A DNA stretch of 64,000 nt, from the sequence record KY608965.1; one strand, written 5' to 3'. The position numbers and the translations under genes are program-made. Below the pieces are notes generated by a model that saw only the letters and a program-made list of their open reading frames with translations, was not told the DNA's origin and did no database searches. Below are positions 24,564 through 51,499 of the stretch, one piece after another. How positions within the stretch are numbered: position 1 is the first letter of the stretch; every line of letters begins with the position of its first letter. This DNA comes from Escherichia phage phiEC1.

Positions 24564-24590
24564 AAAAAGGGACCGTAAGGTCCCTTTTTT
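24564..24590. terminator. Bidirectional terminator between gene 24 (+) and rnlB (-)
   Basis: AAAAA-GGGACC-GTAA-GGTCCC-TTTTTT. Confidence 0.85.
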
Positions 24591-38186: not shown

Positions 38187-38213
38187 GAAAAAGGGAGACA
38201 ACGTCTCCCTTTA
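38186..38213. terminator. Terminator hairpin after gene 54
   Basis: AGAAAAA-GGGAGAC-AAC-GTCTCCC-TTT. Confidence 0.7.
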
Positions 38214-44360: not shown

Positions 44361-44391
44361 ATTATACTCTAATCCGTCCTTGGATGTAAAC
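44361..44391 (-). promoter_or_regulatory. Candidate early promoter
   Basis: On - strand GTTTAC-N19-TATAAT; long spacer lowers confidence. Confidence 0.4.
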
Positions 44392-45005
44392 TACTTAACG
44401 AAATTAATTTCTACCGGATGAACAACAGGTTGAGCAGTGATATATTGAGTAATTGCTTTCATGACTAGAGCTTCAGAACCAGGATTTTTCTCAACGAATT
44501 CACGTGCTTGGTTATGAGCTTCAAGTTCACTTAGTAAACCACTTCGTTGGCATCCACGGTCTTGAGTACCCTGTTCAGATAAAAAGACGACGATGTATTT
44601 TTCATCGTCATAAGATTTAGACGGTTGAGCAAATGTTCCTTTACTTCCGAAAGGAGAGTTATGACGCCACATCACGCCGTGAGGAGTTTCAACCTTCGTA
44701 TATTCGTGCGGGCCATTTTTCTTAATTTCTTGATGTGGAACTTCATGGACCTTAGGGTTAGGACATTCAATAAAATGCTCGTCTAAATCGGTCGAGAATA
44801 TTAAAGTAAAACAATTACTGAATTTACCAACACCTGCCTGATAAATTTTACCTTCAGAAGTTCTAATTTCACAAACTGAGCCGGCATCAGTAACTTCTAA
44901 AACTTCAAAAGGCTCGATAAGGTCATATGAGAACATGTTTTTAAGGCGTGGAGTAATATCCCCATTTTTAAAATTCATTTTATAAAAAGTATTAACTTTA
45001 AACAT
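44391..45005 (-). CDS. Hypothetical protein
   Basis: 204-aa ORF with ATG; His-rich central region; GC hairpin upstream. Confidence 0.6.
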   Translation of the reverse strand: MFKVNTFYKMNFKNGDITPRLKNMFSYDLIEPFEVLEVTDAGSVCEIRTSEGKIYQAGVGKFSNCFTLIFSTDLDEHFIECPNPKVHEVPHQEIKKNGPHEYTKVETPHGVMWRHNSPFGSKGTFAQPSKSYDDEKYIVVFLSEQGTQDRGCQRSGLLSELEAHNQAREFVEKNPGSEALVMKAITQYITAQPVVHPVEINFVK

Positions 45006-45040
45006 AATTTCCTCAGTGGGAGCCGAAGCTCCCAGTTAAA

Positions 45041-45406
45041 TTAGATATCGAATTCATTAAGAACTACATCAAAGATTGCTTCCAGGTGTTCAGGTTTAGC
45101 TCGGTTGCTCAGGATGTGACGAATCCAAGTTTTAACCAGAAGCTTACGATTAACACCGTTCCAGCAAGGATGAGTACCTAAATCACGCTGACGGAAATCG
45201 TCATCTAATGCAATTTTGAAGTTGGAACCTTCCATCGTGATTGAAACCGTGATGCCATTTTCAAATCGCATATAAACGTAATTAGGAGTCATGCACTGTT
45301 CGATTTCACATACTGAACCATTTTTATGTTTCCATAAGCAAATAACTTCAGAAGAACCAGCGATACCGTTAGAAACATATTTACGTTCGAAGTTGATGTA
45401 GTTCAT
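45041..45406 (-). CDS. Hypothetical early protein
   Basis: 121 aa from ATG at 45406 (track ORF begins at an upstream TTG that overlaps the promoter); promoter 45448..45476. Confidence 0.6.
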   Translation of the reverse strand: MNYINFERKYVSNGIAGSSEVICLWKHKNGSVCEIEQCMTPNYVYMRFENGITVSITMEGSNFKIALDDDFRQRDLGTHPCWNGVNRKLLVKTWIRHILSNRAKPEHLEAIFDVVLNEFDI

Positions 45407-45434
45407 TTTATTCTCCAGATGTTTAAGTTGTTTG

Positions 45435-45469
45435 TTGGTACAGGTATATAATAACATAACCTGTACCAA
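45435..45469. repeat. 11-bp perfect inverted repeat bracketing the -10 of an early promoter
   Basis: TTGGTACAGGT (45435..45445) and ACCTGTACCAA (45459..45469) separated by 13 nt containing the -10. Confidence 0.85.
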
Positions 45470-45476
45470 AGTAAAC
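45448..45476 (-). promoter_or_regulatory. Early promoter for ORF 45041..45406
   Basis: On - strand GTTTAC-N17-(TGT)TATTAT; -10 bracketed by an 11-bp perfect inverted repeat. Confidence 0.65.
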
Positions 45477-45480
45477 TGTT

Positions 45481-45849
45481 TTATGCAACTTTAATCCAAT
45501 TGTCTAAATTTAAAACACCTTTGGCTTTCATTTTTTCGATCAGGTTATCTGCTGTAATGCGTCCATTTTGATACCATGTAACATCTTCAGAGTAACCAGT
45601 TTCTTCGTCAACATATGTTTCTGAACGAATTTTACCTGTAATAATAGTTTTTAATTCGTATGTGTCACCTGTGAAAAAGTTTGCTAACACAATTTTCCAA
45701 GAGAAATCATCAGAAGGACCTTCAGGGGTCATACAACCTACGAACTCAAATTGCTCTTTGTATAACATCCACTGGAATTCTTTAATTTCGATAGCTTTAT
45801 AACCGTCGTGGTCTTTACATTTGATGTATGAGTTCAGATTGATTTTCAT
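45481..45849 (-). CDS. Hypothetical early protein
   Basis: 122-aa ORF with ATG; early promoter 45891..45919. Confidence 0.6.
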   Translation of the reverse strand: MKINLNSYIKCKDHDGYKAIEIKEFQWMLYKEQFEFVGCMTPEGPSDDFSWKIVLANFFTGDTYELKTIITGKIRSETYVDEETGYSEDVTWYQNGRITADNLIEKMKAKGVLNLDNWIKVA

Positions 45850-45890
45850 TTTATTCTCCGGTTGTTTTATTGATTAGGTGGTACAAGTCT

Positions 45891-45919
45891 ATAGTAACAC
45901 ATCCTACAGGAGAGTAAAC
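45891..45919 (-). promoter_or_regulatory. Early promoter for ORF 45481..45849
   Basis: On - strand GTTTAC-N17-(GGATGTGT)TACTAT. Confidence 0.65.
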
Positions 45920-45949: not shown

Positions 45950-45974
45950 CACAAAAGGGAGACCGAAGTCTCCC
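45950..45974 (-). terminator. Rho-independent terminator after small basic ORF
   Basis: On - strand GGGAGAC-TTCG-GTCTCCC followed by TTTTGTG. Confidence 0.8.
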
Positions 45975-45979
45975 TAAAA

Positions 45980-49314: not shown

Positions 49315-49343
49315 TTCGATTTCCTCATTGTGTTGGTAGAGTT

Positions 49344-49373
49344 ATAGTATCACAACTCCACCATGTTGTAAAC
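49344..49373 (-). promoter_or_regulatory. Early promoter upstream of ORF 49078..49314 (and probably the DAHP synthase-cd operon)
   Basis: On - strand GTTTAC-N18-(GTTGTGA)TACTAT. Confidence 0.65.
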
Positions 49374-51441: not shown

Positions 51442-51469
51442 TTAGATTTCCTCAATTATCCATAGGAGC

Positions 51470-51499
51470 ATTATACTCTGCTCCTGAGAGTTTGTAAAC
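51470..51499 (-). promoter_or_regulatory. Early promoter for ORF 51142..51441
   Basis: On - strand GTTTAC-N18-TATAAT; -10 bracketed by a 7-bp inverted repeat. Confidence 0.55.

Follow-up and report, generated by a model that had tools for sequence, protein, structure and literature searches.

A perfect inverted repeat around the −10 element of a predicted early promoter in the T4-type phage phiEC1 is probably the RNA stem-loop of a PeSL-type cassette

A perfect 11-bp inverted repeat encloses the −10 element of a predicted early promoter in Escherichia phage phiEC1 (sequence record KY608965.1), and we find that it is probably the stem-loop of a PeSL-type cassette, that is, an RNA hairpin on the minus-strand transcript which attenuates read-through transcription and/or protects the 3′ end of the gene 30.8 message. 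The architecture is of a type already described, the compact cassettes of terminator and promoter called PeSLs (promoter-early stem-loops), which separate neighbouring early genes in T4-like phages. The case is built on the anatomy of the site, its conservation and covariation between phages, the bias of its wobble pairs to the sense strand and its recurrence along the genome. From these we infer that the hairpin would terminate or stabilise RNA, with termination, pausing and a block to 3′ exonucleases all candidate modes. The feature is probably functional as well as conserved, and an RNA element rather than an operator. Positions throughout are those of the window, by which we mean the whole stretch of 64,000 nucleotides analysed.

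The window belongs to an RB69-like (Mosigvirus) phage of the T4 type, and a 901-nt stretch of it (45000–45900) matches Escherichia phages CAU_ECP01 and LF82-4/-9 with 99.8% identity. The genes of this region lie on the minus strand and correspond to T4 cd, 31, rIII and 30.9 to 30.3. The inverted repeat is in the 74-nt gap between gene 30.8 and gene 30.7, which on the minus strand reads: stop codon, AT-rich stretch, GTTTAC, T, TTGGTACAGGT, TATGT, TATTAT, AT, ACCTGTACCAA, 18 nt, GGAG, 6 nt, ATG. The parts of the site and its neighbours, in the direction of transcription, are as follows.

45953–45975, minus strand: canonical intrinsic terminator AGGGAGAC-UUCG-GUCUCCCU with a U run, after gene 30.9
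45891–45919, minus strand: predicted early promoter P30.8, GTTTAC-N17-TACTAT
45481–45849, minus strand: gene 30.8, 122 aa
45471–45476, minus strand: −35 element GTTTAC of the predicted early promoter of gene 30.7 (direct reading)
45459–45469, minus strand: 5′ arm TTGGTACAGGT, within the promoter spacer (repeat search; spacer-shuffle test 0/500)
45446–45458, minus strand: loop TATGTTATTATAT, 13 nt, which includes TG (45456–45455) and the −10 element TATTAT (45453–45448)
45435–45445, minus strand: 3′ arm ACCTGTACCAA, spanning the discriminator and the first transcribed bases (repeat search, direct reading)
45404–45416, minus strand: Shine–Dalgarno (SD) sequence GGAG (45416–45413) and ATG (45406–45404) of gene 30.7
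45041–45406, minus strand: gene 30.7, 121 aa, the gene served by the predicted promoter, 94% aa identity to T4 gp30.7
45018–45033, minus strand: hairpin GGGAGC-UUCG-GCUCCC without a U run, which follows gene 30.7 and closes the one-gene unit

Direct reading showed the repeat to be exactly as the sequence-only reading of this DNA had described it: two arms of 11 nt each, 100% complementary and separated by 13 nt, at 45435–45469, with the −10 in the loop between them. The assignment of the predicted promoter as GTTTAC-N17-TATTAT also holds, the −35 and −10 being 17 nt apart. A TG two bases 5′ of TATTAT makes this an extended −10, and the 21 nt preceding the −35 are about 71% A+T. RNAfold adds a 4-bp inner extension to the stem, leaving a loop of 4 nt. 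The SD of gene 30.7 lies 18 nt 3′ of the hairpin, and both it and the AUG are unpaired in the predicted fold.

The stop codon of gene 30.8 is 11 nt 5′ of the hairpin, so that the 30.8 transcript would either end at the hairpin or read through it. P30.8 would be one source of such read-through RNA, which would hold the entire hairpin. In the mechanism that we propose, one compact intergenic module of ~45 bp would hold both an RNA hairpin and a strong early promoter of the sigma-70 type. The hairpin would form only in RNA begun upstream (at P30.8 and beyond) and reading past the 30.8 stop, and there it would attenuate transcription and/or become a 3′ terminus that protects the 30.8 message. The embedded promoter would restart transcription inside the 3′ arm, at about 45441 as predicted from the usual 7-nt distance after the −10; RNA from this promoter should therefore lack the 5′ arm, and the leader of gene 30.7 would be unstructured. 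Promoter and hairpin may overlap because the spacer is the only sequence-free place in the 74-nt gap for a complement to the constrained region after the −10.

The 64-kb window contains two perfect inverted repeats with arms of 11 bp or more and a loop of 3–20 nt; 40 dinucleotide shuffles average 0.43, and three of them reach two. The 11-bp repeat alone is thus not significant window-wide, and the case depends on conservation. Shuffles of the promoter spacer alone matched the sequence past the −10 over 11 bp in 0/500 trials. The sense-strand RNA folds into a stable stem-loop, as expected of a PeSL (−19.8 kcal/mol, z = −4.5), and the DNA folds of the two strands also beat shuffles (−10.2 and −11.2 kcal/mol, z about −3.5). 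The assertion that such symmetry is not expected by chance therefore failed for the repeat taken by itself across the window, and stood for the spacer shuffles and for conservation; on the spacer shuffles, the fold and the conservation with covariation described below, the inverted repeat exceeds chance.

The −35 has the same position in 32/32 distinct orthologous upstream regions, reading TTTTAC in the L005 group and L017. At the orthologous site T4 has GTTTAC, TG-n-TATTAT and the core GGTACAGG/CCTGTACC, and the same core is present in Dhakavirus and in other Tequatrovirus and Mosigvirus genomes. More distant phages with a gp30.7 homologue (44–56% aa identity) have GTTTAC and the −10 in the same place, with the −10 still enclosed by a hairpin and with quite different arm sequences:

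Klebsiella phage Marfa, 5′ arm/3′ arm: TTGGTGTAGGAGTA/TACTCTTACACCAA
L024, 5′ arm/3′ arm: GGTGAGGGTCT/AGACTCTCACC
EcS1-like phages, 5′ arm/3′ arm: GCTGATTGAGTGTG/CACTCAATCAGC
L037, 5′ arm/3′ arm: TTGGGTGGT../..ACCACCCAA

The pattern is thus conserved, with covariation, in the orthologous promoters of related phages, one of the points on which the sequence-only reading had staked its proposal. In a 12-sequence alignment 4/10 outer pairs change on both sides, and the covariation score is 0.385 compared with 0.184 in column shuffles (0/500) and at most 0.17 with slid partners. The test uses a single register, in which three shifted-register sequences were scored as broken; the EcS1-like and L037 hairpins, being in shifted registers, count against structure in this score though each is strong. 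The covariation comes from about five lineages, two of them in shifted register, so that some of the “homologous pairs” may be independent re-inventions.

Every non-Watson–Crick pair in the stems is a G·U on the sense strand (T4, L012, Marfa, L024, L036, EcS1 and L037), none is A·C, and L037 has three G·U wobbles consecutively. In 10/10 lineages the antisense fold is no more stable than the sense fold. Judged from the sequences, such a pattern of wobbles and strands is what an RNA element transcribed along with the genes should show, and it speaks against a protein operator as well as against a cruciform. The strand argument is carried by the orthologous-locus evidence only: across the early promoters of CAU_ECP01 the difference between sense and antisense stability is not significant (p = 0.18).

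These observations bear directly on a role at the level of DNA, in which a cruciform or single-stranded hairpin would alter promoter opening or shut-off, or would serve as a recombination or replication signal. Pairing is conserved rather than sequence, as a structure-specific function would need, the centre is AT-rich, and both DNA strands fold better than shuffles. How T4 early promoters are shut off has yet to be explained (PMC2988021; PMC3014915), and the PeSL authors, in their account of RB49 and phi1, speculated about a DNA-binding recombination protein (PMC2839356); a crossover inside the element is described below, though plain homology explains it. However, a G·U pair on the sense strand would be A·C on the other, as it would be three times in a row in L037, and a cruciform needs both strands. 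The 13-nt loop would also be unfavourable to extrusion. We therefore consider the DNA-level account quite unlikely, and the earlier suggestion of a cruciform that modulates promoter opening is disfavoured. A stronger version, in which the dyad is a structure-specific DNA switch whose extrusion, or binding by a phage protein, loops out the −10 and so aids T4-type early shut-off, is very improbable. If it were true, this arrangement, present at roughly one in three early promoters, would amount to a genome-wide shut-off signal rather than an RNA element. Given the unexplained shut-off, the cruciform or single-stranded hairpin would be the sole route to something new.

The other earlier suggestion, an operator to which a dimeric, sequence-specific promoter regulator binds, fared worse, and we regard it as exceedingly improbable. 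It draws on the perfect dyad symmetry centred on the −10 and on the identity of the core among Mosigvirus, Tequatrovirus and Dhakavirus. Against it, the Marfa-, EcS1- and L024-type arms are unrelated while pairing is retained, other promoters of the same genome have other arms, and a half-site is neither conserved in the orthologs nor repeated at other promoters. An arm-motif search found no second palindromic site in the window, and single-arm near-matches there are at chance level, which counts against a regulon. The half-sites, 24 bp centre to centre, would be unusually far apart for a helix-turn-helix dimer.

Recurrence was examined in the complete, near-identical genome of CAU_ECP01, using the pattern GTTTAC-N16-18-TAnnnT with an SD and start codon within 75 nt. 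Forty-one predicted early promoters fit, and 16/41 have complementarity between spacer and downstream sequence beyond 95% of spacer shuffles. The genome-wide count against shuffled controls proposed in the sequence-only reading is thus positive. At 15/41 the spacer can form a perfect stem of 7 bp or more with downstream sequence, a recurrence like that of PeSLs; 11 of these stems end just past the −10 and 4 extend to the SD. Leader regions with a fold z below −2 number 21/41. The window itself holds nine such promoters, all on the minus strand, two of which have significant stems, this one and that at 51499–51464.

Several individual sites were seen in the course of this survey. The promoter at 51464–51499 (minus strand) is GTTTAC-N18-TATAAT with a 7-bp repeat, AGGAGCA/TGCTCCT, round the −10 (spacer-shuffle p = 0.018). 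At 49339–49373 (minus strand; CAU_ECP01 11540, L044) an early-promoter spacer pairs with the region after the −10 (GGTGGAGTT/AACTCTACC, including G·U), and this hairpin is strongly strand-specific (sense −16.9 versus antisense −8.1 kcal/mol). A near-identical repeat, TAGGACTA-TGTTATAG-TAGTCCTA, surrounds a TATAGT −10 at eight CAU_ECP01 early promoters (L045, L046), at 70753, 71084, 77815, 79110, 89448, 127964, 148578 (here TACAGT) and 149090, with variants of a base or two (TAGGGCTA at 77815; TAGGATTA at 89448 and 149090); it is a cassette family repeated inside one genome. The motif AGACCTATCAAC, which spans the discriminator and the first transcribed bases, follows the −10 in many CAU_ECP01 early promoters (e.g. 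93599, 126446 and 151662), with or without a complementary 5′ arm, and the 3′ arm of the present repeat (window 45435–45447) is a variant of it.

The four stems reaching the SD in CAU_ECP01 are of 7–14 bp, three of them 13–14 bp. At these promoters (85346, 126446, 139371 and 126012; L045:35346–35405, L046:26446–26503, L046:39371–39428 and L046:26012–26073) a spacer of the form TTCTCC... is complementary over 7–14 bp to the SD region of the gene served, and the same is seen in L021, L022, L025, L026 and L039 at about 640–700. Read-through RNA from such promoters would hide the ribosome-binding site (RBS), and promoter-initiated RNA would not. This layout is familiar from late-promoter cases in T4, not from early promoters.

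At the site orthologous to the phiEC1 repeat, the Karam- and Gelderland-like phages have a 5′ arm at the same spacer position which pairs with the SD (CTCCGTTGTAT/ATACAACGGAG), and in L039 this SD-pairing stem carries compensatory changes (CTCCGAGGTTT/AAACCTCGGAG). These phages and the four CAU_ECP01 promoters would favour a translational insulator, analogous to internal-promoter hairpins that sequester the RBS, in which the hairpin would mainly keep read-through RNA from being translated well into the 30.7 product and so confine 30.7 expression to its own promoter. In the window, T4, Marfa and EcS1, however, the 3′ arm ends 5–18 nt short of the SD, and neither the SD nor the start codon of the phiEC1 gene is paired, the stem stopping 18 nt before the SD; as an account of the present hairpin, translational insulation is unlikely.

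In L034 and in the Klebsiella phages L023/L038 the 5′ arm has been lost and a remnant of the 3′ arm is kept, and a canonical terminator, a GC hairpin with a T-run, lies directly 5′ of the −35. One site therefore has three solutions that can stand in for one another: a hairpin enclosing the −10, a hairpin extending to the SD and a separate canonical terminator. All three would act only on RNA arriving from upstream. That three solutions occupy one spacer position speaks for insulation from read-through as the function under selection. For the attenuating or protective RNA hairpin that we prefer, replacement by canonical terminators (L034, L023/L038) is indirect evidence, from sequence comparison, that the stem-loop may terminate or attenuate transcription. 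Among the CAU_ECP01 promoters, an upstream canonical terminator accompanies 0/15 of those with a bracketing hairpin versus 4/26 of those without, which is the expected direction and not significant (Fisher p = 0.28). P30.8 has its canonical terminator upstream (45975–45953), set apart from the promoter, and no bracketing hairpin.

The hairpin at 45435–45469 is not itself a canonical intrinsic terminator, since neither its stem nor that of any ortholog is followed by a U-tract; A-rich tails (CAAACAACUU in phiEC1) stand in place of the U-run that should follow a GC-rich hairpin in a rho-independent terminator. A simple terminator consensus scan did not call it, and neither did ARNOLD in MK373778. 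The record of a 97.5% identical relative, GenBank OL960576, has a predicted terminator (WebGeSTer) and an overlapping T4-early-type promoter annotated at the site. A search of Rfam gave no family at its gathering score; only the generic hairpin mir-12 appeared, with 20 bits where its gathering score is 55. Literature searches for T4 5′- and 3′-end maps over 30.7/30.8 found none for this site. Another hairpin without a U-run lies 3′ of gene 30.7 (45033–45018), so such structures are normal hereabouts.

That tetraloop hairpin is directly 3′ of gene 30.7 and 3 nt 5′ of the next gene's SD, and it is an annotated terminator in two GenBank records. Elsewhere in the window are two further perfect inverted repeats, AAAAAGGGACC-GTAA-GGTCCCTTTTT at 24564–24589 and AAAGGGAGAC-AAC-GTCTCCCTTT at 38190–38212, both with A-runs 5′ and T-runs 3′ and resembling bidirectional intrinsic terminators.

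Gene 30.7 with its promoter cassette (45041–45476) is 87–95% identical at the nucleotide level across Mosigvirus, Tequatrovirus and Dhakavirus, while the flanks, 30.8 on one side and a 204-aa ORF (44391–45005), compared with the T4-type 30.6, on the other, are about 50% identical between phages. As compared here, gene and cassette are a conserved one-gene module in a mosaic region. L010 (600–700), set against window 45400–45530 and L005, is a natural recombinant: its upstream part through the −35 is of the window type, and from the hairpin loop onward it is of the L005 type (cassette 100%, gene 30.7 97.5%). The point of exchange is inside the shared core of the −35 and 5′ arm, GTTTACTTTGGTACAGGTT, as shuffling of PeSLs predicts. 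Variable flanks and a crossover inside the cassette are in keeping with PeSLs, which occur in plastic regions among small ORFs and at junctions of indels or exchanges.

Cassettes of this kind repeat and recombine, those of P30.8 and P30.7 having a post −10 motif in common, and the repeat could in principle be a by-product of cassette recombination or duplication, or a chance occurrence, with no function of its own; the lack of significance of an 11-bp repeat taken alone in 64 kb would agree with this. Such an origin leaves unexplained the compensatory changes and the sense-strand wobble bias across genera, the absence of the 5′ arm only where a canonical terminator is present, and the enrichment at 16/41 promoters over spacer shuffles, and we judge it very unlikely.

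If the repeat is the attenuating or protective hairpin of a PeSL-type cassette, then T4-type phages would pack a transcript end together with a strong restart promoter into about 45 bp, and each small early gene would become its own insulated, exchangeable unit. For annotation, inverted repeats over the −10 of T4-type early promoters would be better read as cassette stem-loops than as operators. A small new point is the comparison of one orthologous site across genera, with three solutions at the same spacer position.

Of known systems, palindromic operators of the lac and lambda type share with the present site a dyad symmetry over the core promoter; they differ in that here the arms vary among relatives, there is no regulon of sites and the wobbles are strand-specific. 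Hairpins that hide the RBS and contain an internal promoter are known from T4 e, soc, 49 and I-TevI. A further case, mobE of phage Aeh1, is cited in PMC3014915. The likeness is that the promoter is inside the hairpin, hence only read-through RNA folds; the differences are that here the SD is outside the stem and the promoter is early, whereas the classical T4 cases have late promoters. Canonical rho-independent terminators resemble the site in having a stable hairpin, here 11 nt after the stop codon, and such terminators replace the hairpin in two lineages, but the phiEC1 hairpin has no U-tract and a large nominal loop.

The comparison with PeSLs is the closest in kind. They were named by Arbiol et al. 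(2010; PMC2839356), who describe them in RB49 and phi1 as an intergenic AT-rich region with a strong sigma-70-like promoter and a stem-loop, and were extended to T4 and PST by Comeau et al. (2014; PMC4122927), who give the promoter as TTTACW-N17-TAYWAT. According to these two papers, the stem-loop is commonest between the −35 and −10 or overlapping the −10. The arms of phiEC1, TTGGTACAGGT and its complement, are neither of the G-run/C-run type of RB49 and phi1 nor of the short AGNA/TCNT type of PST and T4, and whereas the PST stem-loops lie just 5′ of the promoter according to the legend of figure 3 in Comeau et al., here the −10 is enclosed. Terminator activity is predicted here, and among PeSLs was measured on a single RB49 element, whose stem-loop, as reported in PMC2839356, lowered downstream lacZ about as much as rrnB T1. 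Read as TTTACT-N16-TATTAT, the phiEC1 promoter is one base short of the published N17 and otherwise appears to be of PeSL type. The layout is likewise that of a PeSL: an intergenic site in which a stop codon (45481) is followed by an AT-rich stretch, a sigma-70-like early promoter, and the GGAG (45416) and ATG (45406) of the next gene, with a stem-loop in the spacer overlapping the −10, small non-essential ORFs around it and a recombination junction within it.
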